Below, piece by piece: positions 4,900 through 25,338 of a stretch of DNA of 32,000 nt. The DNA is from Synechococcus sp. A15-24. GTDB taxonomy: Bacteria > Cyanobacteriota > Cyanobacteriia > PCC-6307 > Cyanobiaceae. Both the position numbers and the translations under genes were made by a program. The stretch is from contig NZ_CP047960.1 in NCBI RefSeq assembly GCF_014280195.1, positions 120,001 through 152,000 of the forward strand, given 5' to 3'. The notes beneath the pieces are model-generated. The model searched no databases. It had not been told where the DNA came from and saw nothing but the letters and a program-made list of their open reading frames with translations. Position 1 is the stretch's first letter. Each line of letters begins with the position of its first letter.

Positions 4900-4920
4900 T
4901 CACTTATCGATTCGTTCTCA

Positions 4921-4946
4921 CCTCCCCTTCGGGGGAGGTTTTTTTT
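4921..4946 (+). terminator. Rho-independent terminator after the repeat-protein gene
   Basis: CCTCCCC (4921-4927) / TTCG loop / GGGGAGG (4932-4938), followed by T8 (4939-4946), 22 nt after the TGA at 4897-4899. Confidence 0.8.
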
Positions 4947-4971
4947 GTTTTGCGATATTTTGTATTGCAGC

Positions 4972-6963: not shown

Positions 6964-8158
6964 CTGCAAGTGGCTTGAGTAGCTCCTCAAGTTTGTCAAT
7001 TGTGTTGCTCAACGCATAATGTTTTTGAATATATTCCTTTGAATTTTTACCCCATGCCCGAAGTTTTTTCGGCTGTTTCAGGAGTTTATGAATGGCCTCT
7101 CCAAGGCCTTTTTCATCCCCTTGATAAAGGGCTCCGGTGATTCCGGGTTTGATCAATTCTTTGATCATTGCATTGTTATTTCCGATCACGGGTGTTCCAC
7201 ATGCCATGATTTCGATCAGGCTCCAGCTCAGCACGAACGCGCTCGAAAGGTAGACATGTAAGTCACTTCTCAAATACAACTTGATCAGCTGTTCATGGGG
7301 TATTCGAGGGAAGAAATGTATACGTGTCAGATCTATTTGTCCTTCAAGCTCATGCAATAAGATGTCTTTCCAGCTTCTCCCATCATCTGATGCACTAGAA
7401 TAACTGACTCCATCACCTCCAACAATGACGATGTGCACTCTTTTATTCAAGGCTTGTAGCCTAACTAAAGATCTCATGAACGTAGGGAAACCACGCATCG
7501 GCTCAAGATTTCTGCTGATGTAGGTCACAACAGGTGTATCTTCACCCAACGTTAATTCTGGTGTAAGTGTTAAGCGATTGATTCTTTGATTCTGAAACAT
7601 TGTCTCTTCTACTCCCTCATGTAATACGTTTATCTTATTCTGAAGTCTTTTGGGAAAACTATCGGCTTGAAATTGTGTTGGTAACATCGCGGTTTGCGCT
7701 TGGCTTAAAGACAATTCAACTAAACTATTTTTGTTTTGAAGATAATGCCATTGCTGTAGGGTCATTGATGCATCTGTTTGTCCTAATTGTGTAGGTCTAA
7801 GCCATAGTTCTGGCCAGAGAACTAGAGCACTGCTTGGATATATTCTTTTTAATAGTAAGGTCTCACCCCATCCTGGATGCCCCAAAATGATATCGGGAGC
7901 CCAGTCTTTCCCCTTGAGTAGATTAGCTTGTTCTGCAGCTAGCTCACTTCGATGAATCCATTCGTCGACTTCCTTTGTTAGTTGATGAATCCCGGAACAT
8001 TCCTTTTGTTTATACTCGTATCTATACGTTTCAATCTTGTCATAAATGGGTTTTCCGTGGCTGCAAATCGCTTTTACTTCGTGGCCTCTGTCCACCAGAG
8101 CTGGTGCAATATCACGAAATTGGCCTGGGAAATTTTGGTGTATACAGAGTATTTTCAC
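6953..8158 (-). CDS. GT4-family (Glycos_transf_1) glycosyltransferase
   Basis: 401-aa ORF. N-terminus MKILCIHQNFPGQF...; C-terminal block HVYLSSAFVLSWSLIEIMACGTPVIG...GITG is typical of the GT4 E-x7-E region. Its start overlaps the upstream stop by 4 nt (8155-8158). Confidence 0.85.
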   Translation of the reverse strand: MKILCIHQNFPGQFRDIAPALVDRGHEVKAICSHGKPIYDKIETYRYEYKQKECSGIHQLTKEVDEWIHRSELAAEQANLLKGKDWAPDIILGHPGWGETLLLKRIYPSSALVLWPELWLRPTQLGQTDASMTLQQWHYLQNKNSLVELSLSQAQTAMLPTQFQADSFPKRLQNKINVLHEGVEETMFQNQRINRLTLTPELTLGEDTPVVTYISRNLEPMRGFPTFMRSLVRLQALNKRVHIVIVGGDGVSYSSASDDGRSWKDILLHELEGQIDLTRIHFFPRIPHEQLIKLYLRSDLHVYLSSAFVLSWSLIEIMACGTPVIGNNNAMIKELIKPGITGALYQGDEKGLGEAIHKLLKQPKKLRAWGKNSKEYIQKHYALSNTIDKLEELLKPLAAIF

Positions 8159-10467
8159 TTGCTTTGTCTCTTTAGTGGTGAGAAACGTGCAACAGGCTCG
8201 ATATTGTGTCGAAGAGGCCAGGATGAAGCTTGACTACCTGTCAGCCGTGATAAACCTTCATTTTGTATGAGCTTTCGCCACCATATTCGAAATGTCTTTT
8301 CCAGTTCTTTAGCCATGTCGGCATGGTCCAGCAGTTGGCTCTTGCGCAGATCGCCACGTAAATGTTGTCGTGTCTGAGCTAGTTTTTCACTGTCCGACAG
8401 GAGTTCAACTGCCTTATTGCATAATTCATTTCGACTATTGCAGATCCACTCTGAATGCCCTGCGGCATTCAGAACGGCTGCCGCTTGGCGACTGACCATG
8501 GATTGTCCTGCAACCGTCAGTACAGGTACACCCATCCACAGCGCATCGGCAGTTGTTGTACATCCTGTATAAGGGAATGTATCCAATGCCAGATCTAGAT
8601 TTTTGTATTGCTCAAGATGGGCTTGCACGTTTGGGCTATGGCCATGAAGATGCAGACGTTCTGGAGCAAGTCCGAGTCGTTCAAACAACTTTTTGATTCT
8701 TTTAGCTTCTTGCTCTTCTCCAAGATTTTTAGACTTTAAATACAAATGAGCTGTAGGAATCATTTGAAGCACAGCCATCCAATTTTCGGCTGTTTCCTGG
8801 GTTATTTTACGACTCTGATTGAAGCTGCCTAACATTGCAGTCTGTTTTTTGGCCAATGGCAGTGGGCTTACATCTGGGGCCTCATCCAAAGGGCGATAGC
8901 TCATGTAGCCTCTATTAAGTTTCCAGATTGTTTCCGTGCTGTATTGATCAATCTTTTCATTTTCGGCATGCACGGTATCATCTGTTATCCAATAATCAAC
9001 TGTTTCCAGACCCGTTGTTCCGTAATAACCGAGATAGGTTGCTTGGATCGGGGCAGGCTTATGGGCTAGTACGGGAAGGCGGTTTCCTGCTGTGTGACCA
9101 GCAAGGTCAACAAGAATGTCAATTTCGTCTTGAATGATTTGTTGGATGACACTTTCATCGTCGGCAGATTGTATATCGCGCCAATGGTCTGCCTTACATT
9201 TTAATCTTTCACTATAGTCATCTCTTACCTCTCCAGCTGCGTATAAAGTGATTTCTAAATGTTGTCCTGACCATTGTTCAAGCAGCGGCTCGATAAAATA
9301 GCTGACGGCATGTCTGCAAAAATCGGGTGAAATTAATCCAATCTTCAATTTGCGATGTTGGTCTGGCCAGAGAACACGATCCCGCCAGCGCTCGTATGGT
9401 GCAGTACTGAACAACTGCCCATATTTTTTGGCCTCTTCGAACCGTTCTTTAGCTGGTTCAAGTTCATAGCCCACGAGTGTAAATAGTACATTGGAATGTG
9501 CAGCAGCATTCTCGCCCAGTTGTTTCGCACCTCTTCTGAGCCAATAGAGCGCATCTTGATAGCAGGTTATGTCCTTTAGTACGGATCCAAGGTTGTTCAT
9601 AGCAGCTCCAAATTCTGGTGATGACTTGAGTGCACGTTCAAAACAGTCCTTCGCTTTATGAATATGTCCATGTTCTCTCAACATTAGTCCAAGTGTATTA
9701 AGACAAATGGCATAGTCAGGATCTTGCTCCAATGCCTTTTGGAAGAAATCATAGGCTTTTTCTAAATCTCCTTTCCCTTTGCTGATTACGCCTAATGCGT
9801 ACAATAGATTCGGGTGTTCGTGATGGGTCTTCAGTAACGGGTGAAGTAGCTTTTCGGCTTTTAAATAATCTCGTTGTCCACAAAGTACTTGAGCGGTATT
9901 CAGTACCACGGCTAGATTATTGTCGTCATCTACGAGTTCTTGGCTTTTTGCCCAGTAGCATAGGGCATCTTCAACGTTTCCAACTTGTTGGCAGGCATTC
10001 CCAAGTTCAAGCAGTAGTTGAGATGCGTCCTTCTCGTTGCCAGAAGTCGGAAATGTTTCAAGAAAACTACCTATCTTTTCAATTACAACTTCATGTTCAT
10101 GCATTGCATTCAACGTTATGGCAAGCCCGAGGTGAGGACCACTCATCTCGGGCGCAAGGCTCACCGCTTTTTCAAAGGCCGTGCGCGATTCAGTTAAATG
10201 GCCTAGGTCTCTAAGCACGTTTCCCAAATTTCCTTGGAGCCCGGGGTCGTCTGGCTTTAGTTCCACAGCTTTTCTCTGGAAGACCAAGCCCTCTTCTGGT
10301 CGTCCTAGCTGCCTGAGTAAGGCCCCTAGATTCCGATAGCCATCAACAAGGCCTTGATCTGCCTCGACTGCCTGTCGGTAAAGCTGTTCAGCCTTGTCAA
10401 GCTGCTGTTGCTGGTGCCAGTAGCACGCCTGATTAAACAGCTCCTGACCTTGTGCGTGTCCCTCCAT
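8155..10467 (-). CDS. TPR-repeat + GT41 (O-GlcNAc-transferase/SPINDLY-like) protein glycosyltransferase
   Basis: 770-aa ORF. The N-terminal ~330 aa contains multiple TPRs (AEQLYRQAVEADQGLVDGYRNLGALL..., ALEQDPDYAICLNTLGLML...). The C-terminal GT41 blocks are ISPDFCRHAVS, DLAGHTAGNRL, IQATYLGYYGTTG, GSFNQSRKIT, DTFPYTGCTTTADALWMGVPVLT. Confidence 0.88.
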   Translation of the reverse strand: MEGHAQGQELFNQACYWHQQQQLDKAEQLYRQAVEADQGLVDGYRNLGALLRQLGRPEEGLVFQRKAVELKPDDPGLQGNLGNVLRDLGHLTESRTAFEKAVSLAPEMSGPHLGLAITLNAMHEHEVVIEKIGSFLETFPTSGNEKDASQLLLELGNACQQVGNVEDALCYWAKSQELVDDDNNLAVVLNTAQVLCGQRDYLKAEKLLHPLLKTHHEHPNLLYALGVISKGKGDLEKAYDFFQKALEQDPDYAICLNTLGLMLREHGHIHKAKDCFERALKSSPEFGAAMNNLGSVLKDITCYQDALYWLRRGAKQLGENAAAHSNVLFTLVGYELEPAKERFEEAKKYGQLFSTAPYERWRDRVLWPDQHRKLKIGLISPDFCRHAVSYFIEPLLEQWSGQHLEITLYAAGEVRDDYSERLKCKADHWRDIQSADDESVIQQIIQDEIDILVDLAGHTAGNRLPVLAHKPAPIQATYLGYYGTTGLETVDYWITDDTVHAENEKIDQYSTETIWKLNRGYMSYRPLDEAPDVSPLPLAKKQTAMLGSFNQSRKITQETAENWMAVLQMIPTAHLYLKSKNLGEEQEAKRIKKLFERLGLAPERLHLHGHSPNVQAHLEQYKNLDLALDTFPYTGCTTTADALWMGVPVLTVAGQSMVSRQAAAVLNAAGHSEWICNSRNELCNKAVELLSDSEKLAQTRQHLRGDLRKSQLLDHADMAKELEKTFRIWWRKLIQNEGLSRLTGSQASSWPLRHNIEPVARFSPLKRQSK

Positions 10468-10515
10468 ACCCCTATGGTCTCATGAAATAATCATCCCAAA
10501 TGGCTTGAGCGGACA

Positions 10516-12204
10516 ATGGTCGCGAACACAGCTCCTGGGCGAGCGTTGGAACTGTTTCACGCTGGTGAACCGCTGCAGGCCATTGAAGCTGCGCAGGAGC
10601 TTTTAACGGCCTCTTCATTGGATAATGACCAAGCTGCCGAGATGCATCACCTTATCGGTGCATGTTTTCACCAGCTTGGTCAGAACGATGATGCATTGAA
10701 ATACCTGCTTTTGGCGTCCAGACTTAATCCTTTAAATCCCACGTATTATAATACCTATGGTGTTGTTCTTCGTAAGTCCGGTCGTCTTGAAGCTGCTGTA
10801 CGCTCCTACGAGTTTGCTTTAAAATATGAACACAACTTTGCTGATTGTTTTTACAACCGTGGTAATGCCTTAGCAGAACTTAAGCGCAAGGATGAAGCTG
10901 CCCTCGAGTTTAAACAGTGTCTCCGCTTGAATCCAACCCACAATAATGCCCACCATAATCTCGCAAATATATATCGTGATCAGAACCATATCGATTTAGC
11001 CCTCGATCATTATAGGATTTCGAATGAATGTCAGCCCTACAACCCCGATATGCATTGCAATTGGGGGCTTGCTTTGCAGCTTAAAGAGCAATGGGGGGAC
11101 GCGATTGATCAGTTTGAAATAGCGATTAACCAAAAGAGCGACCATGCGCCGTCCTACGTCAATCTTGGCAGTGCACTCTCAGTCCAGGAGCGTTTCGACG
11201 AAGCATGTTCTGCGTTACGCAAGGGTGTTGAAATTGATGATTCTTGTCATGATGCAAAGTTTAATCTTGGACTAACACTTCTTACAATTGGCCAGATGGA
11301 TGAAGGTTGGAAGTTTTACGAAACACGCCTCCATCTTCCTGATAAGGTAATCACTCCTTTCCCGGGTATTCCGGTTTGGGATGGCTCAGTTAATCTGGAT
11401 AGTCCACTAATGGTGTGGGCTGAACAGGGCTATGGCGATAATATTCAATTTGTGAGGTATATACCAATATTAATGGAGATGGGGCTTGACGTTGTTTTGT
11501 CAACGCGAAAACCTTTGATGTCTTTATTTAGAGAGTGTTTATCTCCCTCGGCTCCTCCAATTGTTGAACATCGACGTCAGGATCTTAATGGTTTTCATCA
11601 TCATATTCCATTGCTGAGCCTTCCGCGTGTTCTTGGTACTCGTCTCGATACTGTTCCATTGATGCCTGGCTATCTAAAACGTCCGGAACGGATCCCTGAT
11701 CATTTGCAAATATCTCGACCCCCATTTGCCTTAAATATCGGTCTTGTCTGGGCTTCTGGCGTTGATAACAAGGAGATGTATGCAGACAAGAGCTTGCGAC
11801 TGGAGCTTTTGTTGCCTCTATTCGATCGTTGGCGTAAGGAGCGCTTGGTCTGTATTCATTCTCTGCAAGTTGGTCAAGATGCCTCACAGCTCGCACCTTG
11901 GAAGGACGAATGGGGCGTTTACGATTGGAATGATAAGCTTTCGTCATTCTTAGACACCGCCTGTGTCATTTCCCAACTGGACCTTGTTGTTTCTGTCGAT
12001 ACCGCAGTAGCGCATGTTGCTGGTGCGCTTGATAAACCAGTTTGGGTATTACTCCAACATAATGCTGATTTCCGCTGGATGCGCGGTCGTACTGACTCTC
12101 CTTGGTATAGTTCGATGAGTCTTTTCCGCCAGAAATCACTTGGTGATTGGTCATCGGCCCTTGAGAGTTTACAAGAACGTCTTGTTCATCTTCTTGGCCC
12201 ATGA
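10516..12204 (+). CDS. TPR-repeat + GT9-like (heptosyltransferase-fold) glycosyltransferase; first gene of the T1SS operon
   Basis: 562-aa ORF. N-terminal TPRs (YYNTYGVVLRKSGRLEAAVRSYEFALKYEHNFADCFYNRGNAL...). C-terminal GT9-like blocks WAEQGYGDNIQFVRYIP and LVVSVDTAVAHVAGALDKPVWVLL. Its stop overlaps the next start (ATGA at 12201-12204). Confidence 0.8.
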   Translation: MVANTAPGRALELFHAGEPLQAIEAAQELLTASSLDNDQAAEMHHLIGACFHQLGQNDDALKYLLLASRLNPLNPTYYNTYGVVLRKSGRLEAAVRSYEFALKYEHNFADCFYNRGNALAELKRKDEAALEFKQCLRLNPTHNNAHHNLANIYRDQNHIDLALDHYRISNECQPYNPDMHCNWGLALQLKEQWGDAIDQFEIAINQKSDHAPSYVNLGSALSVQERFDEACSALRKGVEIDDSCHDAKFNLGLTLLTIGQMDEGWKFYETRLHLPDKVITPFPGIPVWDGSVNLDSPLMVWAEQGYGDNIQFVRYIPILMEMGLDVVLSTRKPLMSLFRECLSPSAPPIVEHRRQDLNGFHHHIPLLSLPRVLGTRLDTVPLMPGYLKRPERIPDHLQISRPPFALNIGLVWASGVDNKEMYADKSLRLELLLPLFDRWRKERLVCIHSLQVGQDASQLAPWKDEWGVYDWNDKLSSFLDTACVISQLDLVVSVDTAVAHVAGALDKPVWVLLQHNADFRWMRGRTDSPWYSSMSLFRQKSLGDWSSALESLQERLVHLLGP

Positions 12205-12893
12205 ATGATTTTCCGTTCGATGACCGTACTTGGCATTTACTTGTCCGTTCTAGTAGAACTCGTATATTAATCGAGTCATGGATTGAGGAGCAAATCTGCA
12301 AGAGTGTTTCGCTTGAAAAAGATGTTGAAAGTTCTCTCGTTGCCTCTTTCGCATCTTCTAAGTGGATGGACGAGGCTGATGATGTCTCATATGCTGCAAC
12401 CCGTATGGCTCGGCTTCAGCGCTTTAAGCGCTCCCGTTTCCTTCCCAAGGTCGAAGAGTATTTCACGCGTACACGCTCAGCTAGAGATCAATTAATCTTT
12501 TCAATGCTCCGTTGTCGCAATTCCTCTCGTCTTCAAGAATTAGCTCTAGCGATTCGAGAAGGTGAATTAGAGCTTTCGGCAGCTGCGATCCGTTGGTCAG
12601 AGGGTCCAGAAAGTGCCCGTGGTGGCAGAATCGGTCCTGTTTTGGCATCGAATGTTGGCCATCCTGAGTTAACGAAGCGCTTACTCGTGGCCGTTGAGGG
12701 CCGTTTAATCGGCCCGTTTGATCTTGGCGACACAAATGTTCTTATTCGACTTGACAAAAGGCTTCCAGCTCGGCTAACCCATGACATGGAAGGCCAATTG
12801 ATCGACGAACTTTATCAGGAGTGGATCAGTGCTCAAATTGGCCTAGTTGAAGAGGGTGGGACAATAGACCTGATTGAGTACCTTCCAGATTGA
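12201..12893 (+). CDS. Parvulin/PpiC-like (rotamase-domain) protein, probably catalytically degenerate; T1SS accessory candidate
   Basis: 230-aa ORF with no signal peptide. The C-terminal half resembles a PpiC rotamase domain (AAIRWSEGPESARGGRIGPVLASNVGHPELTKRL...GRLIGPFDLGDTNVLIRLDKR). By eye, the two conserved parvulin His positions are not His. It is translationally coupled on both sides (ATGA at 12201, TTGA at 12890). Confidence 0.6.
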   Translation: MNDFPFDDRTWHLLVRSSRTRILIESWIEEQICKSVSLEKDVESSLVASFASSKWMDEADDVSYAATRMARLQRFKRSRFLPKVEEYFTRTRSARDQLIFSMLRCRNSSRLQELALAIREGELELSAAAIRWSEGPESARGGRIGPVLASNVGHPELTKRLLVAVEGRLIGPFDLGDTNVLIRLDKRLPARLTHDMEGQLIDELYQEWISAQIGLVEEGGTIDLIEYLPD

Positions 12894-15800
12894 CTTCGTC
12901 GTTGTCGTCCATTGTTCGGTTGTTGATGGAGCACCCGCCGCTTGACCACTTTGCGGCGGATTTGATACAGGCTGATGAACAGCAGGTTTCTGCATTGTTC
13001 GTGCCTTTAGGTGACTCTCTTGCTCAAGAACAAGTTCCCCTGTCCTCCGTGGTATTGGTTGTTGAGGGATCCCTCCGCGTCTTTGGTCGAGATGCGTCTG
13101 GTCAGGAATTTACATTGCGACGTGTTTTACCTGGGGAATGGTGGGGTGGTGTAAGTGTCTTAAATGGTCTTGCTGCTGCTGGATGTAGAACCAGCGCAGA
13201 TTCAAAAATTTTAGTTGTACCTGCTGTGGTTTGGGAACGCTGGTGGCGGGACGATCGTCGCTTGGGTGAATGGCTTTCAAAACATTCGCAGCGTGAAGAT
13301 CTTTATTCTGCCCTTAGGTCGCTTTTGGTTCAACGTGAATTGCAGGATCTGAGTCTTGCTGAACTTCTTGATAAACTCCAGCCAATATATCTTTTTTCAG
13401 AGGTTTTAAACTTAGATGATCTAAATCGTCTTGTCGAGCGTCATCCTCAGATGAGTTGGTTCCCTCAGTTTCCTGAATTATGTTTCCCTGATTTAGGTCC
13501 ACCGAGTTTTCGCGGTTTCAATGTTTCACAACTGCGAGATGCTTTGGATAACTCATCTCGAGGGTTACGTCTCGTTGGTATTCCTGTAGCTCAGCTACAG
13601 ACCCTCTTTGAAGCACCCAAGAAGCCTCGGCCTGCTGATAAATTAGCTGATGCGGTCCTCGTAGAGCAGCCAGTCTGGCAAAATCCTGATGGGTCTGAAT
13701 TATTGACCCTGGCCATGCAGCAGGACCAGGGACCAGTAACTCTTAATCGCAAAGCTCTCCAGGTCAAGCCGGTTTTTGGTTCTACCCCAGTGGAGCAGGG
13801 TTTGGCATTGCTTCAGATGGTTTGCGAGGTCCTTCAGCTGCCCTTTCGGCGTGATGTTGTTGATCGGATGCTGAATGGCATGGTGGGAGACCGCACCAGT
13901 CCGTCATTGGAAAACCTGGGTCAAATAGCTGACGCTTTAGGTCTCACGGCAGTCATGATGCAAGTTCCTGCCTCGCATCTCAATCGTGTGAGTTTGCCTG
14001 CATTGGTAGAGACCGTTGATGGAGTTCTTCTGCTTGCTGGTGATTCGGGTTATTGTCTGCGTTTGATCGACCCTCGGGAGGGTGAGAGACTCATCAGCGC
14101 AACTGAATTGCAAGACCAACAGCCGACATACCGTCTGATAACTCTCTCCCGTCGTGTTGATTCTGCGACGAAGCGCTTTGATATAAGCTATTTCTTCCCC
14201 TTTTTACGGCGATACAAGAGTTCCCTTATATTGGTTTTTGTAGCCTCAATATTTATCAATATCTTTGGCCTTGCCCAGCCTTTAATTATTCAGCAGATTA
14301 TCGACAAAGTGATTGGCCAGCAAAATTTTAGCACACTATATTTTCTTGGAGTGATGCTTATTGGAGTCAGCATTCTGTCAAACGTTCTTAATCTTATTCG
14401 CACATTTTTATTCACCGATACGACTAATCGTATTGATATTGCGACTTCTGGTAATATTTTGACTCATTTGTTCCGTTTACCTCTTAATTATTTTGATAAG
14501 CGGCCTGTTGGCGAAATTTCTACAAGAGTTGGAGAGTTAGGAAATATTCGCGGTTTTTTGACCGGTACTGCGCTGACTCTTATCCTGGATGTAATATTCG
14601 GTTTTGTTTATCTTTTTGTTTGCATTTCCTATAGTGGTTTGCTAACTGCTGTGGCTCTAGGTGTTGTTCCCCTTTACCTTGCACTTGTTTATATTATCGC
14701 GCCAGTTATTAAAAAGCAGCTTCGGATTGCCGCTGAGGCTAACGCCGCTGCAAGCGCCCTCATGGTTGAGGCGCTTAATGGAATGCAAACCGTAAAAGCT
14801 CAACATGCTGAGACGACCATCAGATGGCGTTGGCAGCAACGCTACGCACGTTTTGTTTCCAGTAACTTTCGAACCACAATTATTGGCTCCACAGCAGGTT
14901 CCATTGGTGCTTTTTTCAACGAAGTTGGCGGTCTTGCCGTTCTCTGGGTTGGTGCCTATCTGGTTTTGCAAGGGGATTTGACCATAGGCCAATTGATCGC
15001 TTTTCGAATAATCAGTGGAAACGTTGTTGGTCCTGTTATTCGTCTTGCTCAAACATGGCAGACAGTTCAGGGTCTTCAGATTTCTGTAGAACGTTTGGCT
15101 GATGTTGTAGATGCAGAACCCGAGCAACCTCTGGACGCACGTCCAATTGCTCTTCCACCGATCAACGGAAAAATCGAGTTTGACCAAGTAGATTTCCGTT
15201 TTAACGAACATGCTCCACTTGTCGTCAAACAAGTCTCATTTACAATTGAACCTGGTCAGTTTATTGGAATTGTTGGCCAAAGTGGCAGCGGAAAAAGTAC
15301 AATTATGAAGTTATTGCCAAGAATGTATAAAGCTGCTTCCGGCACAATTCGGATCGACGATTATGATATTTCTAAAGTAGATATTGATTCTTTGCGTCAG
15401 CAGATCGGAATTGTTCCTCAGGATTCAATGTTGTTCGATGGGACAATACGCGAGAACATAGCTCTCAACTCTCCGGATTCAACAGACGAAGATATTATTT
15501 ATGCAGCCAAGGTCGCTTGTGCTCATGCTTTTATAATGGATCTTCCGAACGGATATGACTCTCGTGTGGGTGAGCGTGGATCCGCTCTCTCTGGCGGACA
15601 ACGGCAAAGAGTGGCGATTGCTCGGTCAATCCTGGCACGACCGCGTTTGTTGATTCTTGACGAAGCCACGAGTGCATTGGACTATTTGACGGAACGCACT
15701 GTCTGTGAGAATCTGCGTCGTGAATTGAAAAATGATACTGTATTCTTTATAACTCATCGACTTGGTACAATCCGTAATGCTGACAATATCCTCTTAATGG

Positions 15801-15901
15801 ATAGCGGCCTTCTTCAGGAAACTGGCTCTCATGCTGAGCTTCTAAAGAAACGAGGCTTGTATTATGCCCTTTATCGCCAGCAAGATGCCTCCGTCAACTG
15901 A
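12890..15901 (+). CDS. Type I secretion ABC exporter with N-terminal cNMP-binding domain and a degenerate C39-like domain
   Basis: 1003-aa ORF with a TTG start. cNMP-binding cassette: VVEGSLRVF...PGEWWGG...CRTSA (G82-E83, R100-T101). C39-like segment: TPVEQGLALLQMV, with Gln (codon 13796-13798) where the catalytic Cys sits. Six-TM ABC_membrane region. Walker A GQSGSGKST (15275-15301), signature LSGGQRQRVAIAR, Walker B LLILDEATSALD. Confidence 0.93.
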   Translation: MTSSLSSIVRLLMEHPPLDHFAADLIQADEQQVSALFVPLGDSLAQEQVPLSSVVLVVEGSLRVFGRDASGQEFTLRRVLPGEWWGGVSVLNGLAAAGCRTSADSKILVVPAVVWERWWRDDRRLGEWLSKHSQREDLYSALRSLLVQRELQDLSLAELLDKLQPIYLFSEVLNLDDLNRLVERHPQMSWFPQFPELCFPDLGPPSFRGFNVSQLRDALDNSSRGLRLVGIPVAQLQTLFEAPKKPRPADKLADAVLVEQPVWQNPDGSELLTLAMQQDQGPVTLNRKALQVKPVFGSTPVEQGLALLQMVCEVLQLPFRRDVVDRMLNGMVGDRTSPSLENLGQIADALGLTAVMMQVPASHLNRVSLPALVETVDGVLLLAGDSGYCLRLIDPREGERLISATELQDQQPTYRLITLSRRVDSATKRFDISYFFPFLRRYKSSLILVFVASIFINIFGLAQPLIIQQIIDKVIGQQNFSTLYFLGVMLIGVSILSNVLNLIRTFLFTDTTNRIDIATSGNILTHLFRLPLNYFDKRPVGEISTRVGELGNIRGFLTGTALTLILDVIFGFVYLFVCISYSGLLTAVALGVVPLYLALVYIIAPVIKKQLRIAAEANAAASALMVEALNGMQTVKAQHAETTIRWRWQQRYARFVSSNFRTTIIGSTAGSIGAFFNEVGGLAVLWVGAYLVLQGDLTIGQLIAFRIISGNVVGPVIRLAQTWQTVQGLQISVERLADVVDAEPEQPLDARPIALPPINGKIEFDQVDFRFNEHAPLVVKQVSFTIEPGQFIGIVGQSGSGKSTIMKLLPRMYKAASGTIRIDDYDISKVDIDSLRQQIGIVPQDSMLFDGTIRENIALNSPDSTDEDIIYAAKVACAHAFIMDLPNGYDSRVGERGSALSGGQRQRVAIARSILARPRLLILDEATSALDYLTERTVCENLRRELKNDTVFFITHRLGTIRNADNILLMDSGLLQETGSHAELLKKRGLYYALYRQQDASVN

Positions 15902-17189
15902 TTCAAAACCTTCTAATCTTTCACCATCGGAAGGCTCATCACTTGTACGCCGAATCGTTAATTCTGTAATTCAGCGTTCCAATCGTAAAGTCTTTTTCGA
16001 TTCTCCGGGAATGTTGGATCAAAGCCAACACTGGGGTGGACTCGTAATTTGGACCATTGCTGCTGGTACCACCGCTGCACTCACCTGGGCATTTATCGGT
16101 AAGGTTGATCAAACTGTTTCGGCATCAGGGACTCTTGAGCCCCTTCTTGGCAAAGTTGAGGTCAAGAGTCCTAGTGGTGGTATTGTTCGCGATATATGGG
16201 TCAAAGAAGGAGAGTTAGTTGAAACCGGTGATCGTCTTGCAACAGTAGAGAATCTAGGTTTAAAAGCTCAATTAGATAATATAACTCGCCAAATAGCTCT
16301 TTTGTCCTATGAAAATCAGCTTCTAAATCTCCTGATTGATGGACAGGGCTCCTTACCAAATACTTTACCTGCCCCTCCAGCCAATATTGCAAGTGAAGAT
16401 CGTATCCGTTCAATCCAATTATCGGTACAGCAGACCGGAGCCCAGCTCCGTCAACTACGCACGCGCCGTATCTCACAAACTCAAACGTATGACTTAAGAG
16501 CACAGATGGCCATGGCTATGAAGACTCTCTTCGAGAATGGGGGGACATCTCGATTCAACTATTTATCAGCACAAGACGATGTTCAGCAAATTAGTTCTCA
16601 AATATCCCAGACCGACGAGCAGATCAATATTCTGATTGCACAGGCTGGTCGTCAGGTGAGTGCCAATACTCGCCAGTTGCTTAATCTTGAAGCTCAGCAA
16701 ATTGATTCTAAGGAAGAAAACCGTAACCTTTTACTTTCTGCTTTCGCTCCGGGTCGTATCTTTAATCTTTCAGTACAGCCTGGTTCTGTTATCGGTGCTG
16801 GGTCTGAGGTGATGAGAATAATCCCAGAAGGTGGAGTCCGTGCAAGTGTCTATCTTTCCAATGCTGATTTGGGTTTCGTGTCGGAAGGTCAAGACGTCAA
16901 ACTTTCTGTATCTTCTTTCCCTGCAGGTGAGTATGGATACCTCAAAGCTAATATTACAAGAATTGGTGCTGATTCTCTTAAGGGTAGCTCGTCTTCTCAA
17001 CAGCAGCCTGCAAATACATATCCTGTACAAGTGACGCTGCAACAAAATCCCGATAAGAAGGTATTATTAGATCGTTTGAAGCCAGGTATGCAAGTTACAG
17101 CGTTGATTGTTGTACGGAAGCGCCCAGTGATTTCGCTTCTCACTGATATGTTTACGAAGGGTTCAGAGGATCTGCAGAACAGTCGTTGA
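15864..17189 (+). CDS. HlyD-family membrane fusion (periplasmic adaptor) protein of the T1SS
   Basis: 441-aa ORF. It has an N-terminal TM helix (GGLVIWTIAAGTTAALTWAFIG), a lipoyl-like hairpin (VKSPSGGIVRDIWVKEGELVETGDRLATVEN), a long coiled-coil middle, and a C-terminal beta-barrel block (LKPGMQVTALIV). ATG 15864 has GAGG 8 nt upstream; the alternative ATG is at 15885. It overlaps the ABC gene's 3' end. Confidence 0.9.
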   Translation: MPFIASKMPPSTDSKPSNLSPSEGSSLVRRIVNSVIQRSNRKVFFDSPGMLDQSQHWGGLVIWTIAAGTTAALTWAFIGKVDQTVSASGTLEPLLGKVEVKSPSGGIVRDIWVKEGELVETGDRLATVENLGLKAQLDNITRQIALLSYENQLLNLLIDGQGSLPNTLPAPPANIASEDRIRSIQLSVQQTGAQLRQLRTRRISQTQTYDLRAQMAMAMKTLFENGGTSRFNYLSAQDDVQQISSQISQTDEQINILIAQAGRQVSANTRQLLNLEAQQIDSKEENRNLLLSAFAPGRIFNLSVQPGSVIGAGSEVMRIIPEGGVRASVYLSNADLGFVSEGQDVKLSVSSFPAGEYGYLKANITRIGADSLKGSSSSQQQPANTYPVQVTLQQNPDKKVLLDRLKPGMQVTALIVVRKRPVISLLTDMFTKGSEDLQNSR

Positions 17190-17935
17190 TGTCAGACAAT
17201 TTTTTTCAAATTTATTTATCTAATATTGACGAAGAACTGCCACCAGTACTTGCACGTCAGTCCATTCGATTTAAACAACTATATTCTAATTGCTGTTACA
17301 TGCTCCTTACTAGATCTTCCTTGCGTGATTGTCTTGTTGACATTATGCCAGCTGAGGTCCTTTTAGCCTACGACTCTTTGGTTCCGCTGGCCTACAAGTC
17401 TGATCTCGCTCGTTACTGTCTTCTATATCATTTTGGTGGTTGGTATGCTGATATTACGATCAAGCCTGAAATTGGTATGCGGTTAGGCTCTTCTATTGAC
17501 TTTGCTTATTTCTATGACTTTGGTTCCGGTCTACCGTCGATTATGCGTTCAGCACATGATGTGATGAATGCTTTTTTTTATTCTCGACCGAATCATCCGA
17601 TCCTGTCACATATGATTGAGTCTGTTTTACGCAATTGCCGCAACCATGATTATGGTGTCACAGCTCTTTGTCCCACGGGGCCGACGCTGTTTGGTCGCAT
17701 CATTGCTCAGTTTGTTCCAGCGCCTTCTCTTCTTTTCGGCCATTTTATGCCTCTTACACCGTTTCATCAAAACCAAAACAAAGCATTTGTTGGACAAGAC
17801 GGTTCTATCGTCGCCTGGCATAAATCCGCTTGGCATCGAAATCATCCTGGTGGGGGTGACTTGACCTGCTTTGGATTAAAAGGAACAAACAATTATCAGG
17901 AACTATGGGCTAAACGTTCTGTCTTTTCAATTTGA
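17189..17935 (+). CDS. GT32-like glycosyltransferase (Gly_transf_sug / OCH1-TcdB-type sugar-binding region)
   Basis: The motif YKSDLARYCLLYHFGGWYADITIKP matches the k-SD-l-RY-x-L-y-x-GG-x-Y-x-D-x-D region of that family. ATG 17189 overlaps the HlyD stop (TGATG); the track's start is TTG 17186. Confidence 0.7.
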   Translation: MSDNFFQIYLSNIDEELPPVLARQSIRFKQLYSNCCYMLLTRSSLRDCLVDIMPAEVLLAYDSLVPLAYKSDLARYCLLYHFGGWYADITIKPEIGMRLGSSIDFAYFYDFGSGLPSIMRSAHDVMNAFFYSRPNHPILSHMIESVLRNCRNHDYGVTALCPTGPTLFGRIIAQFVPAPSLLFGHFMPLTPFHQNQNKAFVGQDGSIVAWHKSAWHRNHPGGGDLTCFGLKGTNNYQELWAKRSVFSI

Positions 17936-19135
17936 TAGCAGTTTTCTTTGAACAAGTGCCTGGATTAAATTGTCCATACTTGCAACCCAGCTATATTTTT
18001 CCATTTGCTTCGCACCTTTCACCCCCCGATAATGCCATTCCTGTTTATTCTTCAGTTGTTGGCACCATAGCTCGACAAGCGTGTCTGGATTACTTTCTCC
18101 CCACATTGATCTATGATCGTAACCGTAAAACTTTGTAATTGATTCATCCACATCTTTGTTCTTGCTGATGCCTATTGCGTGCGGGATATCTCCGTCCAGT
18201 AAGTCTCGGTGACCAGTGTTGTTTGAAAGTATCGTTGGCAACCCACAAGCTAATGTCTCCATTGCCATTAAGTTTGTTCCACCCTCACAACGACTCATAA
18301 ATACAGCACTATCAGCCTGCTTCACCAGTGATGGCAGTTGACTATTTGCCATTGCTGTAGGTACAACAACATTCCGAGCTGGAATTCCTTGCTCGACCAG
18401 CCATGGATGAATATCTTTGGCTTTCCCTGTTCGGGGTAGACCTCGAATATATGGAGATGCTTCGATTGTTGATAATCCGATGTCCGCAATATTGGTCCAA
18501 CATGCAATTAGAAGAGCTTCTGGGCAATATGCCAGAAATTTTTTGAAGGCCTCAATCACGATGTCTTGCCCTTTTCTTGCCTCTAATTTTCCACCTGCAA
18601 AAATTACAAGGCTACGATCAAAAAGCTTTGGGATTGGTATAGCGTTGAATCGGCTAATGTCAATACCTTGGTGCATCATTAGACAATTTTTAAGGCCGCT
18701 GAGTTCAGCAACTTGCTGATTCCACGTTGAGCCTGTAACCACTAAATCAAACTTACGCATATGATCGATGAGTGCTTCTGGTAGCTTACTTCGTTCAAAG
18801 AATGTTACTCCAATTCGATGGTTACCACTAAATTTCTGTGCCACGAATCCATTCCCTAGCCCCTCAATTGTTAGTTCGCAATTTGTCTGTCTGATGACCT
18901 TACTGTCATTTCGATTCGCGATAATGAGGGCTTCGCTTTTTTGCTCTATCTGATCTGCCCAGAGATTCCAATGCAAGTCACAGTTTGAGCTTCTTTGGAT
19001 CGGTTCGCTCACGATTGGTTGTGCGATTGACCGGCTGATCAGTGCTTGTGCGAGTTGAATGCCGTAGCTTCCCCAACCCGTGTATGGCGTCAATGGCCAA
19101 TCGATCAGGATGCGCTGCTGATTTAATCCATCCAT
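17927..19135 (-). CDS. GT4-family glycosyltransferase
   Basis: 402-aa ORF. FAGGKLEARKGQDIVIEAFKKF... and FMSRCEGGTNLMAMETLACGLPTILSNNTGHRDLL form a GT4 E-x7-E block. Confidence 0.85.
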   Translation of the reverse strand: MDGLNQQRILIDWPLTPYTGWGSYGIQLAQALISRSIAQPIVSEPIQRSSNCDLHWNLWADQIEQKSEALIIANRNDSKVIRQTNCELTIEGLGNGFVAQKFSGNHRIGVTFFERSKLPEALIDHMRKFDLVVTGSTWNQQVAELSGLKNCLMMHQGIDISRFNAIPIPKLFDRSLVIFAGGKLEARKGQDIVIEAFKKFLAYCPEALLIACWTNIADIGLSTIEASPYIRGLPRTGKAKDIHPWLVEQGIPARNVVVPTAMANSQLPSLVKQADSAVFMSRCEGGTNLMAMETLACGLPTILSNNTGHRDLLDGDIPHAIGISKNKDVDESITKFYGYDHRSMWGESNPDTLVELWCQQLKNKQEWHYRGVKGAKQMEKYSWVASMDNLIQALVQRKLLSN

Positions 19136-19141
19136 GATTGT

Positions 19142-20017
19142 CTACGCGTCGAGCATTCCGATAAAGTTACGCCCAGCATGCTCTACGGTTAGAAATTGAC
19201 TGTTGGTTAAATGTGGTTTCATGATCTGGAACATTTTCATGACTCCCAATGTAGCTGCACTCTCAAGCGGCCCATGGAATGATGTGTCTTCGACGTCCCA
19301 GTATTCACTCTTGAAATATTTATTAGACTGCTTTTTATTTAGAAAAAAACATCCTGAATGAGTGTTGAATGGCTGTGTGAATAGAACGCTTTCCCCAAGA
19401 TGATCCATATAGAGCTCTTTGTTCATGGATTGTCTGTATTTTTCTGTGGCTTCCGGATTGTAATCACCATCGATCAGGAACCTTCGCAGGTTTTTAAGGT
19501 TTTGGCTGGTTTCAATTCGATTTGGCTGCAATAAATAGATATCTGAGAACACTCGATTGAATCTTTGTAATTTTTTAAAAAAGTCAGCGTCTCTGATGAT
19601 GATGTCATCTTCCAGGTAACAGTTGTAGTCGTACTTCGTGTAATCTTGCGCAAGAATTCGATGGCACTGAAATCCAAGATGTTTTGGCTGGTCTGGCTCA
19701 CATTCAATGCGCGTAAATGCTCCTACGTTCTCTAAATCCTCCAGTTCGTTGAGTAGGTGTTTATCCTTAGTGATACAGATGGAGATTTTTAGCTCGCTTT
19801 CTATGTCTTTCACGATTTCGACGCGTCGTTTGACATGATTCAATGCACCTGTTGGATGTCCGAACAGTCGATGCAGTTGCAGGATCAGTTCCCTTAAGGC
19901 GCTGGTCCGTCCCAGCGAATCAGGGCTTAATGACCCGTGCCTGCCCCCTCCATCAGGATTGAAGTAATGAACGACTGCAAAGTGGAGACGCACGACGACG
20001 GGTTCTTTGTGGTTCAA
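19142..20017 (-). CDS. Hypothetical protein; possible GT-A-fold glycosyltransferase
   Basis: 291-aa ORF lying 6 nt upstream of the GT4 gene on the same strand. It has an N-terminal beta-strand-like segment VVVRLHFAVVHYFNP and an acidic YLEDDIIIRD (DxD-like) motif. No family was recognised with confidence. Confidence 0.55.
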   Translation of the reverse strand: MNHKEPVVVRLHFAVVHYFNPDGGGRHGSLSPDSLGRTSALRELILQLHRLFGHPTGALNHVKRRVEIVKDIESELKISICITKDKHLLNELEDLENVGAFTRIECEPDQPKHLGFQCHRILAQDYTKYDYNCYLEDDIIIRDADFFKKLQRFNRVFSDIYLLQPNRIETSQNLKNLRRFLIDGDYNPEATEKYRQSMNKELYMDHLGESVLFTQPFNTHSGCFFLNKKQSNKYFKSEYWDVEDTSFHGPLESAATLGVMKMFQIMKPHLTNSQFLTVEHAGRNFIGMLDA

Positions 20018-20055
20018 TTTACTTCTACACCCATCGCCAGCCTGTTAGGCATCAG

Positions 20056-20289
20056 TTGTTGTCACACCCGATCCCCCTCTCAAGACGCCTTCGGCGTCTG
20101 TTCGTACGGCTCCGTATAAGCCCTTTGTCTGTCCCCTTGTTCCTCCTGTTCTTATGGTCAGGCGTGGTGGCTGCACTGGCTCGCGTTGCCGACCCCTGGA
20201 TTGTTGGCCTAGCCGCGACACCTTTGGCTTTTGCTGCCTGCTTGGCGTTGTTATGTCTTTGGGCCTATCGCAAAGATTTTTATGCCTGA
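20056..20289 (+). CDS. Possible small two-TM membrane protein (77 aa)
   Basis: TTG-start ORF with an Arg-rich N-terminus and two hydrophobic spans (LSVPLFLLFLWSGVVAALA; IVGLAATPLAFAACLALLCLWA). It lies in a GC-rich patch. Its stop overlaps ATG 20282 of the next gene (ATGCCTGA). No homology was recognised. Confidence 0.35.
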   Translation: MLSHPIPLSRRLRRLFVRLRISPLSVPLFLLFLWSGVVAALARVADPWIVGLAATPLAFAACLALLCLWAYRKDFYA

Positions 20290-21964
20290 TCCGGCAGCTT
20301 TAATGCTTCCAGGGGATGCTTTTGATGTCGACCATCAGCAGATCATCGGTCGGCGTGTTGCTGGTCGTTCCATGGCTTTGGGTTTTGCTTCGCAACTGAC
20401 TGCAGGTGATACTCTTTCTTTGATCTGTTTTAATCAACAGGAGCGTAGGCGGCTACAGGATCTTTTAATTCCTAATCTTCATCCAGAGGCTTCCCTTCGT
20501 TTTCCTGATCTTAATCCTGAGTCACTGACGGAGATCGGCGCCATTCATCTTCCAGATCCAGGTCTTTCTCGTTGGCAATTGCTGCGATCCTCCTGTCCCG
20601 CAAACGCTTTTTCGTTGACGGGTGTTATTCATACTTTGTCTTCATCCGATGTGATTAGTGAGCTGGAACGTTTGTTTTTGTCTCCTTTGTGTTCATGGGA
20701 TGCTCTTGTTTGCACATCAACTGCTGGTCGTGATGTTGTAACTGCTGTTTTCAAGTCATTTCAACAATATCTTGAGTCCCATTTTTCCTGCTCCATCACC
20801 AAACGAGACGGGCTTCAGCTTCCCATCATTCCTTTGGCTGTTTCAGACCCCTTGCCTGAGACTATGGGTTTTGACTCAGACAGACGTCGTCACAGATGTC
20901 AGTCAAGAAAGACTCTTCAAATAGACCAATCGGCTTTCGTCATCCTTTTTGTTGGTCGCCTTAGTTTTCATAGCAAGTCTCATCCTCTTCCACTATATCG
21001 AGCTGTGAATCGCCTTTCGGCGGAAAATCCTGGTCGAAAGATTGTTCTTTTAGAGTGCGGTCACATCTTTAACCAGCCTATTGAAACAGCTTATCAAGAC
21101 CTAGCGCGCCAGTTTTTGAACCTTTCGATTATTCGGCTGGGAGGCCTGGAACCAGCATCCGAGCAGGAAAAGCGTGATGCTTTTGCGGCAGCAGATGTCT
21201 TTGTCTCTCTTGCTGATAATCTTCAGGAGACTTTTGGCCTTTCAATTATTGAAGCGATGGCCGCTTCTTTGCCAGTCATTTCAACGGATTGGAATGGTTA
21301 TAAAGATCTTGTTGATAACGGCATTACTGGGTTTAGAATACCTGTTTCAATGGTGAGCAATAATTCTGATCAATATGATTGGATCGATTCTATGTATGGC
21401 CTGGGTCTTATGCCATATGACACGATGATTGGGTTAAGGAGTATGGCGGCAATTGTTGAACATCAGCCGCTTTATAGAGCCTTGCATTTGTGTCTAAACT
21501 CATCATCCTTGGTTCAACTCATGGGGGCGAATGCCCGCCAACGTTGGATCGAATCCTTTAGTTGGAGTCCAGTTTATCGTCAATATCTTGATCTTTGGTC
21601 AGAATTGGCAGATCGTCGCGTATGTTCTAGTTCGGTACGTACATCTATATCTTCTTTTCCTACCCCTACCTCAAAACCTTTTTCTCATTATCCTACAAAG
21701 CTTATAAAGCCTTATTCTGTCGTATGTGGGTCGTTGTCGGAGGTTGAACTGCTTCCGCTGTCGACGCTCCGACTGTCGATGAATTCGTCGTTTCTAGAGT
21801 CTCTTTCAAATCAACATTTAGATGCAGTGATTAATTATCTTGAGCATCATCATTGTATAGATGTTCACGCACTTACCTCCTTTGGTCTCTCGCGTTCTAA
21901 TGCCTTGGCACTCTTAGCTGCATTGATCAAGCTGGGTGTTGCAGTTTTGGATAAGGTCCAATGA
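20282..21964 (+). CDS. GT4-family glycosyltransferase with C-terminal extension
   Basis: FVILFVGRLSFHSKSHPLPLYRAV and ADVFVSLADNLQETFGLSIIEAMAASLPVISTDWNGYKDLVDNGITGF form a GT4 core. ATG 20282 is preferred to the track's TTG 20231, which would overlap the small ORF. About 150 extra C-terminal residues are of unknown function. Confidence 0.85.
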   Translation: MPDPAALMLPGDAFDVDHQQIIGRRVAGRSMALGFASQLTAGDTLSLICFNQQERRRLQDLLIPNLHPEASLRFPDLNPESLTEIGAIHLPDPGLSRWQLLRSSCPANAFSLTGVIHTLSSSDVISELERLFLSPLCSWDALVCTSTAGRDVVTAVFKSFQQYLESHFSCSITKRDGLQLPIIPLAVSDPLPETMGFDSDRRRHRCQSRKTLQIDQSAFVILFVGRLSFHSKSHPLPLYRAVNRLSAENPGRKIVLLECGHIFNQPIETAYQDLARQFLNLSIIRLGGLEPASEQEKRDAFAAADVFVSLADNLQETFGLSIIEAMAASLPVISTDWNGYKDLVDNGITGFRIPVSMVSNNSDQYDWIDSMYGLGLMPYDTMIGLRSMAAIVEHQPLYRALHLCLNSSSLVQLMGANARQRWIESFSWSPVYRQYLDLWSELADRRVCSSSVRTSISSFPTPTSKPFSHYPTKLIKPYSVVCGSLSEVELLPLSTLRLSMNSSFLESLSNQHLDAVINYLEHHHCIDVHALTSFGLSRSNALALLAALIKLGVAVLDKVQ

Positions 21965-22947: not shown

Positions 22948-22948
22948 A

Positions 22949-24070: not shown

Positions 24071-24086
24071 ATTTTCTAGGATGCTT

Positions 24087-25256: not shown

Positions 25257-25338
25257 GGCTCTATCCCACCTTCTTCTGGTACGGGTTTAGGGGACTTGTG
25301 CCACTCATTAGAATTTAGCCCTAACCCTGCGCGGCTTC

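Follow-up and report, generated by a model that had tools for sequence, protein, structure and literature searches.

A Sll1180-type type I secretion transporter of Synechococcus sp. A15-24 that carries a cyclic-nucleotide-binding fold with a degenerate phosphate-binding cassette

Background

The peptidase C39-like domain of HlyB, the ATP-binding cassette (ABC) transporter of an Escherichia coli type I secretion system (T1SS), is essential and binds the unfolded substrate (PMC6363468). In Synechocystis sp. PCC 6803, Sll1180 and Sll1181 belong to a T1SS that exports the surface-layer (S-layer) protein Sll1951, of the repeats-in-toxin (RTX) type, by way of the TolC homologue Slr1270, according to the account of Agarwal et al. 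(2018) that is given in PMC11594277. HetC of Nostoc has a domain of the cyclic nucleoside monophosphate (cNMP)-binding type at its N-terminus, before its C39 domain, and PteB of Synechococcus elongatus PCC 7942 has a similar organisation (PMC10986499; PMC4997328). A 480-residue N-terminal fragment of HetC, in which the domain homologous to the one described here is included, showed no binding of cAMP or 2-oxoglutarate by nano differential scanning fluorimetry. Its ligands were ppGpp (Kd 59 µM) and the nucleotides GTP and GDP, and HetC without residues 2-278 is not functional (PMC10986499). Acidic RTX proteins that are free of Cys are a classic type of S-layer and T1SS cargo (PMC3034196), and in the exoproteomes of marine Synechococcus the SwmA, SwmB and haemolysin/T1SS-type proteins are almost undetectable in the dark (PMC4949707), which hints at a regulated T1SS output in these organisms. 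Here we describe a transporter gene of Synechococcus sp. A15-24, referred to below as the ABC gene, that combines several of these features. It lies in a stretch of 32,000 nucleotides (NZ_CP047960.1, positions 120,001 to 152,000), all of which was analysed and which we call the window.

The ABC gene is an ordinary representative of a family of type I secretion pumps, widespread among cyanobacteria, that includes Sll1180. The reading that we favour, with a probability of roughly 0.72, is that its product acts in the inner membrane as the ABC subunit of a T1SS of the HlyB type, with a C39-like domain and an RTX-like surface protein as cargo, and that the cyclic-nucleotide-binding (CNB) module at its N-terminus is not a sensor of cAMP or cGMP. 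The CNB-fold module is most likely an ancestral appendage of the cyanobacterial transporter family with a regulatory or a docking role.

The transporter and its catalytically dead C39-like domain

Among solved transporters the closest to the ABC protein is E. coli HlyB (E=1e-147), with an alignment that reaches into the HlyB C39-like domain; the alignment to PCAT1 starts only at the transmembrane domain (TMD). The top match in NCBIfam is TIGR01846 (type I secretion HlyB) at 672.6 bits, below its trusted cut-off of 725.55, and there are weak matches to the HepA and MsbA families. Taken with the HlyD gene that lies downstream, these results bear out the proposal of an earlier note on this DNA, made from the letters of the sequence, that the gene encodes a T1SS ABC transporter of the HlyB type. 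All four of the Pfam domains that the note had expected were recovered in an hmmscan-type search: cNMP_binding at aa 39-117 (35.6 bits, cut-off 27.5), ABC_membrane at aa 446-715 (159 bits, cut-off 28) and ABC_tran at aa 779-928 (121.3 bits, cut-off 25), together with a sub-threshold Peptidase_C39 match at aa 302-410 (15.1 bits, cut-off 22). The nucleotide-binding domain (NBD) has a Walker A motif GQSGSGKS, a signature LSGGQ, a Walker B motif with the catalytic Glu, LLILDE, and an H-loop ITHR; judged by these motifs it is predicted to be ATPase-competent, and the TMD to be of the six-helix type. The open reading frame has TTG as its start codon, in overlap with the stop of the gene before it, and this start is supported by the N-terminus MT(S/A)S(L/I)SSR that homologues share. 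The codons singled out in the note are in frame and encode what it said (GGGGAA for G82-E83, AGAACC for R100-T101 and CAG for Q303), and its motifs VEQGLALLQMV and DGVLLLAG are present from aa 301 and aa 377, respectively.

In the C39-like domain the catalytic Cys is replaced by Gln303, the His by Gly378 and the oxyanion Gln by Gly297; the Asp is retained as D394. The assignment was checked in a hidden Markov model alignment on two active-type relatives (P0113 and P0240), which read D-C-G-A-A-C-L, (K/Y)-H-x-x-V and A-D-P at the positions where the ABC protein reads E-Q-G-L-A-L-L, D-G-V-L-L and I-D-P. The Cys-to-Gln exchange and the missing His that the note had described are thus upheld, and the intact triad that it had named as grounds for refutation is not there, with Cys and His both replaced and the Asp kept. 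For comparisons of conservation we used 82 close homologues, which were filtered by length and their N-termini aligned with MAFFT, and a broader sample of 150 family representatives. Gln occupies position 303 in 80 of the 82 close homologues, none of which has His at position 378, and Cys is found at the aa 303 position in just 3 of 110 family representatives. The modelled C39 part superimposes on LahT150, the double-glycine protease of an AMS/PCAT transporter, with a TM-score of 0.79 and a root-mean-square deviation (rmsd) of 2.8 Å over 144 columns; a single-sequence search of the Protein Data Bank (PDB) with this domain gave no match, and only the fold search detected it. Because the domain has neither Cys nor His, it is reasonable to infer, as the note did, that the substrate is exported uncleaved.

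A genuine CNB fold with a degenerate phosphate-binding cassette

The N-terminal CNB domain is genuine as a fold. A profile built from 24 such N-terminal domains matches the solved CNB domains of PKG (CNB-B, E=1e-16), Thermus CAP (4e-14) and PKA RIα (5e-12), and further those of MloK1 (2e-10) and NtcA (1e-7). An AlphaFold model that covers aa 1-440 has a mean predicted local distance difference test (pLDDT) score of 82.9, and of >90 over the CNB domain; in Foldseek its CNB part superimposes on PKA RIα CNB-B with a TM-score of 0.76 and an rmsd of 2.6 Å, and the fold matches include a trypanosome PKA regulatory subunit with inosine bound (6hyi). The structural glycines G41, G60, G82 and G86 are invariant. 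With the Pfam match above its cut-off, the profile and the model confirm the cNMP-binding fold that the earlier note had placed at this end of the protein.

The canonical phosphate-binding cassette (PBC) of such domains follows the pattern G-[D/E]-x-[F/I]-G-E-(helix)-x-x-R-[S/T]-A, in which the Arg comes 10-11 residues after the second Gly. Its Glu binds the ribose 2'-OH, and its Arg and the Ser/Thr/Ala bind the cyclic phosphate. In the ABC protein the canonical F-G-E has become W85-G86-G87 and the R-[S/T] has become A95-A96. In this register, G67-D68 of CRP corresponds to G82-E83, G71-E72 to G86-G87, R82-S83 to A95-A96 and R87-A88 to R100-T101, as placed by the profile-to-PKG alignment, by a phmmer alignment to Thermus CAP (the best single-sequence alignment in the PDB), by an hhalign comparison of the aligned family with six canonical CNB domains (probability 98.8%) and by the secondary structure of the model. 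The model has the PBC helix at aa 87-92, strand β7 at aa 98-101 and a hairpin turn at aa 102-104, which puts R100 two residues from the turn, where R82 of CAP lies seven residues ahead of its own, and the distance from G86 to R100 is 14 residues as against the canonical 10-11. A pairwise alignment to Mycobacterium tuberculosis Crp, which is weaker (E=0.4), is alone in matching R-T-S, and does so by opening a gap of four residues. The earlier note had taken G-E and R-T for the hallmarks of an intact cassette. On the alignments and the model this is a register error: G82-E83 corresponds to the structural G-[D/E] that precedes β6, R100-T101 is predicted to lie within β7, and at the positions that matter Glu has given way to Gly and Arg-Ser/Thr to Ala-Ala.

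The same degeneracy is found in the relatives of the ABC protein. At the PBC Glu position (aa 87) the 82 close homologues have Leu (56), Gly (8), Ala (8), Cys (4) or His (2), and none has Glu; at the Arg position (aa 95) they have Ala (50) or Ser (32). Of the 150 family representatives, ~125 cover the PBC, and among these the Glu position is Glu in 5 and the Arg position is Arg or Lys in none (0/125). The family itself numbers 203 matches at E ≤ 1e-30, that is, about 200 clusters at 50% identity, and 62 of the 71 representatives that cover all four sites lack the PBC Glu and Arg and the C39 Cys and His together, so that the degenerate state appears to be the norm of the family and not a peculiarity of the ABC gene. 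As both of the positions that would contact a cyclic nucleotide have been lost, or were never there, the CNB module is not expected to sense cAMP or cGMP.

A different conservation overlies the lost cassette. Most family members, Sll1180 included, have a conserved P-C-E at the site of the canonical P-R-[S/T], three residues before the C-R-T site, and the picocyanobacterial clade has A-[A/S]-A there, followed by a C-R-T (C99-R100-T101) that is nearly invariant within the clade (aa 95-101, 13172..13192). T101 is present in 73 of the 82 close homologues. R100 is lost in sister clades, Sll1180 and Prochlorococcus among them. P-C-E and C-R-T may represent a single functional site in which the register has shifted or the charge has been swapped. 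Another residue, R63, was considered as a ligand residue specific to the family, being near-invariant (114/117), and was set aside, as it is also found in the active-type relatives and in Thermus CAP (GKVRLF); by this comparison it looks to be a generic Crp-type feature.

One homologue, P0084 (1006 aa), has a scrambled NBD (…ADGRCSNRQRMLIRCFATYKELNLKMS…) where the Walker A region is expected, which looks like frameshifts or assembly errors in a metagenomic copy.

The operon, the glycosyltransferase island and the candidate cargo

In Table 1, we have listed the features of the ABC protein and of the genes around it. The ABC gene stands third in a series of five genes that overlap by 4, 4, 38 and 4 nt at the successive junctions, an arrangement by which the HlyD partner is predicted to be translationally coupled to the transporter. 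The HlyD gene product matches HlyD_3 at 76.9 bits and TIGR01843 at 160 bits, under the cut-off of 208.65 for the latter. The PpiC-like protein encoded directly upstream of the ABC gene has a Pfam Rotamase match of 17.9 bits that is below the cut-off, a weak match to TIGR04500 and a faint one to the SurA parvulin (E=0.58), and may be a T1SS accessory factor or chaperone specific to the lineage.

Table 1. Features of the ABC gene and its surroundings; coordinates are positions in the window.
Feature	Coordinates	Strand	Details
Probable cargo, RTX-like repeat protein, 1484 aa	445..4899	+	left end of the island
Intrinsic terminator	4920..4947	+	ACCTCCCC-TTCG-GGGGAGGT then T8; directly after the cargo gene
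Upstream island part	4945..10467		GT41 4945..6963 (+); GT4 6953..8158 (-); TPR-GT41 8155..10467 (-)
TPR + GT9-like glycosyltransferase	10516..12204	+	first operon gene; Pfam; 4-nt overlap with next gene
PpiC/parvulin-like protein, 230 aa	12201..12893	+	sub-threshold Pfam Rotamase; 4-nt overlap with ABC gene
T1SS ABC transporter, 1003 aa	12890..15901	+	order: CNB-like, middle, C39-like, TMD, NBD
CNB-fold domain	12947..13330	+	aa ~20-147: β-barrel aa 34-111 plus αB and αC helices
Degenerate PBC	13139..13192	+	aa 84-101, WWGGVSVLNGLAAAGCRT; Glu position = G87, Arg-Ser/Thr = A95-A96
Middle α/β domain	13337..13609	+	aa ~150-240; disordered linker aa 245-281 after it
C39-like domain, catalytically dead	13775..14152	+	aa ~296-421; Q303, G378, G297, D394
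ABC transmembrane domain	14225..15034	+	aa 446-715, Pfam ABC_membrane
Nucleotide-binding domain	15224..15883	+	Walker A, signature, Walker B + Glu, H-loop intact
HlyD-family membrane-fusion protein	15864..17189	+	Pfam HlyD_3, TIGR01843; 38-nt overlap with ABC gene
DXD-type glycosyltransferase	17186..17935	+	last operon gene; 4-nt overlap with HlyD gene
Downstream island part	17927..26472		GT4/GT1 + GT9-like genes, plus 291-aa protein 19142..20017 (-)

The operon is embedded in an island of more than ten glycosyltransferase (GT) genes, of the families GT41 (with tetratricopeptide repeats, TPR), GT4/GT1, GT9 and GT6. The island has a GC content of 42-48%, as compared with 56-58% for the adjoining secA. 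The low-GC (37-48%) glycosyltransferase island lies on both sides (4945..26472 and 29313..31463) of this high-GC secA gene (26506..29310). The 291-aa protein of the downstream part has no match in Pfam or PHROGs; it is kept at the same island position in two related loci (L001 and L002) at 64-66% identity, and three others (L032, L033 and L035) have there a gene for 287-293 aa that is without a Pfam match. A PHROGs scan of the PpiC-like protein, the candidate cargo and the 291-aa protein gave no match.

The probable cargo of the transporter is the 1484-aa protein at the left end of the island. It contains no Cys, has a pI of 4.05, consists to 64% of Gly, Ser, Ala, Thr and Asp, carries 29 N-x-S/T sequons and has no obvious signal peptide. 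There are 20 strict RTX nonapeptides GGxGxDxUx in it, where shuffled sequences have a mean of 0.18 and a maximum of 2, and their spacing has a dominant period of ~20 aa; the C-terminal ~135 aa are free of repeats and conserved. In a related locus from a marine metagenome (L032), the gene at the cargo position is an orthologue with 49% identity over 493 aa (E=2e-104). Identity is highest (63%) over its last 135 residues, which lie outside the repeats and finish in the shared tail GTGNFG-x-A-x-AIPTFS. The presence in the same island of an RTX-like, acidic, Cys-free candidate that is syntenic in a marine relative would fit the HlyB-type assignment of the transporter. The terminator that follows the cargo gene, with its 8-bp GC-rich stem, TTCG loop and run of eight T, is the top-ranked terminator of the region, and an analogous hairpin with a T-run is found just after position 1477 at the orthologue in L032; the terminators at both loci suggest that the cargo gene may be a separately, and perhaps highly, expressed monocistron. 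Cargo of another kind, small proteins with a double-glycine leader, was looked for by a regular-expression scan of all small open reading frames on both strands of the window and none was found, although the pattern was simple and divergent leaders could escape it.

Conservation of the locus in relatives

The genomes that come closest, at 71% identity, belong to two freshwater picocyanobacteria, Synechococcus sp. UW140 and S. lacustris; those of Cyanobium, Vulcanococcus and Prochlorococcus follow. The triad of PpiC-like, ABC and HlyD genes is found in every locus that is long enough, down to an ABC identity of 39%: the HlyD gene is kept downstream of the ABC gene, and the PpiC-like gene lies directly upstream of it, at 27-53% identity, in all related picocyanobacterial loci whose sequence extends far enough in that direction. 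Upstream of the triad the TPR-GT9 gene is kept in seven loci (L001, L002, L003, L006, L007, L032 and L035), and the DXD glycosyltransferase is kept in L001 and L002. The island as a whole is collinear in L001, L002, L032, L033 and L035, and its upstream part (4945..10467) in the first four of these. The left part of the island is collinear in freshwater metagenome-assembled genomes (MAGs) and in one marine contig of Tara Oceans.

Candidate cargo genes are also found beyond L032. A Vulcanococcus locus (L006) has an RTX-like, Cys-free open reading frame within the cluster, and two Prochlorococcus loci have Cys-free reading frames rich in Gly, Ser, Asp, Thr and Ala immediately upstream of the triad. 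Five contigs from MAGs and single-amplified genomes (L001, L002, L013, L014 and L033) break off precisely where the repetitive cargo gene is placed, or within it. These stops fit assembly breaks induced by the repeats, so that MAGs of picocyanobacteria probably contain fewer cargo genes of this kind than the organisms do.

The locus L003 (CAYFMB010000077.1) comes from a MAG that is labelled "uncultured Klebsiella sp." and carries the cyanobacterial operon of TPR-GT9, PpiC-like, ABC and HlyD genes, with an ABC protein that is 67% identical to that of A15-24. The contig almost certainly comes from a picocyanobacterium and was mis-binned.

A model of export and the role of the N-terminal module

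In the model that we favour, the cargo would probably first be glycosylated in the cytoplasm by the surrounding TPR-GT41, GT4 and GT9 enzymes. By analogy with HlyB, the dead C39-like domain would then tether the unfolded RTX-like protein, which would leave the cell uncleaved through the ABC-HlyD pair and a TolC-like channel encoded elsewhere, and may end as a surface or S-layer-type protein. The PpiC-like protein might conceivably serve as a chaperone of the cargo, and the CNB-like and middle domains might regulate or scaffold export. The CNB module may have a non-cyclic ligand, such as the guanine nucleotides or ppGpp that HetC is reported to bind, or it may position the two C39-like domains by way of a Crp-like helical dimer.

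Several observations weigh against this model in one or another of its parts. The ABC protein misses the trusted cut-off of TIGR01846, and a TolC gene was not seen among the large open reading frames of the window; in Synechocystis the channel, Slr1270, is encoded apart from the transporter genes. The link between transporter and cargo is one of adjacency and synteny, and so circumstantial, with 8 kb of glycosyltransferase genes lying between the two; the candidate cargo itself scores below the Pfam HemolysinCabind threshold (13.2 as against 23 bits), reaches the threshold of no Pfam family and has a repeat period of 20 residues, not of 9. The invariance of R100 in all 82 close homologues implies that this residue is functionally important, and it may line some pocket. 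Lastly, the ligand data for HetC were obtained with a 480-aa fragment of a distant paralogue that is an active protease (PMC10986499).

Of the other explanations, one that we regard as possible, although tentative, is that no small molecule binds to the CNB-like and middle domains, and that these form a module for structure, dimerisation or docking (with the cargo, the PpiC-like partner or HlyD as its partners) that derives from an ancestral Crp-like fusion. The degeneracy across the family of both PBC positions that contact ligand is in keeping with such a role, as is the finding that, R63 apart, the CNB part is invariant at its generic structural glycines alone. Long αB and αC helices are predicted, like the dimer helix of Crp, and they are followed by a middle domain that folds confidently (a dedicated model has a pLDDT of 88.7 and a predicted TM-score of 0.80) and has no known neighbour: it gave no sequence match in the PDB and no PDB neighbour in Foldseek (best E=1.4). 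What speaks against a purely structural module is that C99-R100-T101 and P-C-E are each strongly conserved in their own clades, which suggests a specific functional site, and that HetC binds nucleotides (PMC10986499). A winged helix-turn-helix of the Crp type was also considered for the middle domain and rejected: Foldseek alignments to whole Crp extend over ~250 columns but with an rmsd of 13-17 Å, and the dedicated model has no such relative.

Somewhat less probable, in our estimation, is a module that links export of the surface protein to nutrient status, in the manner proposed for HetC, by sensing (p)ppGpp, GTP/GDP or another non-cyclic nucleotide or metabolite, for instance an anionic one. 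The HetC fragment binds such nucleotides and the N-terminal region is essential (PMC10986499), and CNB folds with altered PBCs are found to take other ligands, as in 6hyi with its inosine and in NtcA. The module has been kept from Synechocystis to Prochlorococcus, which implies selection, and the near disappearance of T1SS-type exoproteins of marine Synechococcus in the dark (PMC4949707) would accord with gating, although that effect could be transcriptional or energetic. On the other hand, the binding site of HetC is not mapped to its CNB domain and its affinity is weak; the ligand data stem solely from this paralogue and not from a member with the C39-like type of domain; and the PBC positions that line the pocket vary between clades (P-C-E as against A-A-A), which argues against one conserved ligand. 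In its fullest form, which we likewise consider doubtful, this proposal would have the CNB-like and middle domains sense a non-cyclic ligand ((p)ppGpp/GTP or a carbon/nitrogen metabolite) and gate the export of a glycosylated surface protein, conserved across the picocyanobacteria including Prochlorococcus, with the C99-R100-T101 patch (P-C-E elsewhere) as the ligand or effector site.

It is very improbable that the substrate of the ABC-HlyD pair is not a protein but a glycan or a glycolipid, the product of the glycosyltransferases encoded around it. The transporter genes do overlap glycosyltransferase genes on both sides, within an island of more than ten, and there are the weak matches to HepA and MsbA. 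The best matches are by far those to HlyB-type protein exporters, the peptide-binding C39 fold has been kept and a conserved RTX-like cargo gene is present. Glycosyltransferases of the TPR-GT41 type are typically enzymes that modify proteins, which we count against glycan export, as we do the export of a protein by the homologue Sll1180, as described in the account cited above (PMC11594277).

Least probable of all is the receptor for cAMP or cGMP, with an intact PBC and switching secretion on or off, that the earlier note had put forward, for the above-threshold Pfam match, the genuine fold, the gapped R-T-S match to M. tuberculosis Crp and the conservation of R100 and T101 are outweighed by three alignments and the secondary structure of the model, which assign the PBC Glu to G87 and its Arg-Ser/Thr to A95-A96, by the absence at these positions of Glu in the close homologues (0/82) and of Arg or Lys in the family representatives (0/125), by the loss of R100 in Sll1180, Prochlorococcus and other sister clades and by the failure of the HetC fragment to bind cAMP (PMC10986499). 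The tie to motility or light signalling that the note drew from such gating is speculative.

Significance

The main correction that follows from this analysis is that a match to Pfam cNMP_binding together with two dipeptides is insufficient to call a cyclic-nucleotide sensor; gating by cAMP or cGMP is unlikely here, and the degenerate cassette is a trait of this family of transporters, including the experimentally studied Sll1180. We know of no T1SS ABC transporter with an appendage that has been demonstrated to be gated by a ligand, and for that reason the N-terminal module is worth biochemical study. It is a conserved module of ~290 residues, half of it without a structural neighbour, that sits on the probable exporter of a major surface protein in globally abundant phototrophs, and so makes a reasonable target for such work. 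The ties of the T1SS genes to TPR-GT41 and other glycosyltransferases and to a parvulin-like partner also suggest a pathway in which surface proteins of the RTX type are first glycosylated and then exported.

Comparison with known systems

E. coli HlyB (PDB 7sgr, 8dck and 3zua) aligns with the ABC protein from HlyB residue 50 to the end. The two have in common the inactive C39-like domain, the HlyD partner and an RTX-type cargo with a presumed C-terminal signal; they differ in that HlyB has no CNB-like or middle domain, the ABC protein of A15-24 carrying ~290 extra residues at its N-terminus. In the 2012 account of Lecher et al., HlyB reportedly has Tyr in place of the catalytic Cys and keeps the His, where the ABC protein has Gln and Gly.

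The canonical CNB domains of CRP/CAP, PKA, PKG and MloK1 share with that of the ABC protein the fold of an eight-stranded β-barrel and helices and the structural glycines, and depart from it in their F-G-E and R-[S/T], for which the ABC protein has W-G-G and A-A. HetC and PteB have the same succession of an N-terminal cNMP-type domain, a C39 fold and an ABC half-transporter, but they are active proteases with the catalytic Cys and His, in contrast to the Q303 and G378 of the ABC protein. PteB exports small proteins with a double-glycine leader, none of which were matched in the A15-24 window, and hetC has no adjacent gene for a membrane-fusion protein (PMC10986499). The candidate cargo can be likened, by description only, to the RTX S-layer glycoproteins of the SwmA type (PMC3034196), which are likewise large, acidic, Cys-free, built of Gly/Asp repeats, encoded amid glycosyltransferases and without a signal peptide; it differs in its repeat period of 20 aa and in its sub-threshold Pfam RTX match.

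The nearest of the described systems is that of Sll1180. In our data set this protein is represented by P0270 (BAA18265.1, Synechocystis PCC 6803, "HlyB family"), which was assigned to Sll1180 by annotation, length and gene order and not by locus tag. The gene is followed by a HlyD-type gene and then by a Rieske gene, which we take to be the order sll1180-sll1181-sll1182. The representative of the Sll1180 cluster aligns with the N-terminal profile over positions 1-447 of the ~445-aa region (E=4.8e-86). Both proteins have the Pfam domains in the order cNMP_binding, Peptidase_C39, ABC_membrane and ABC_tran, with 49% identity over 721 aa; both have a C39-like domain without Cys, a degenerate PBC and a HlyD gene immediately downstream; and the cargo described for Sll1180, in the account cited in PMC11594277, is also a large surface protein of the RTX type. 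The differences are that Sll1180 has Ala, Ser and Val at the Cys, His and Asp positions, where the ABC protein has Gln, Gly and Asp; that its cassette reads V-P-C-E-T, in place of A-A-A and then C-R-T; that the CNB parts are only ~20% identical; and that sll1180 lacks both an upstream PpiC-like gene and a surrounding glycosyltransferase island. A cNMP-type domain ahead of a C39 domain is already known from HetC, and the ABC gene of A15-24 is a further member of the Sll1180 type of T1SS for S-layer or RTX proteins.

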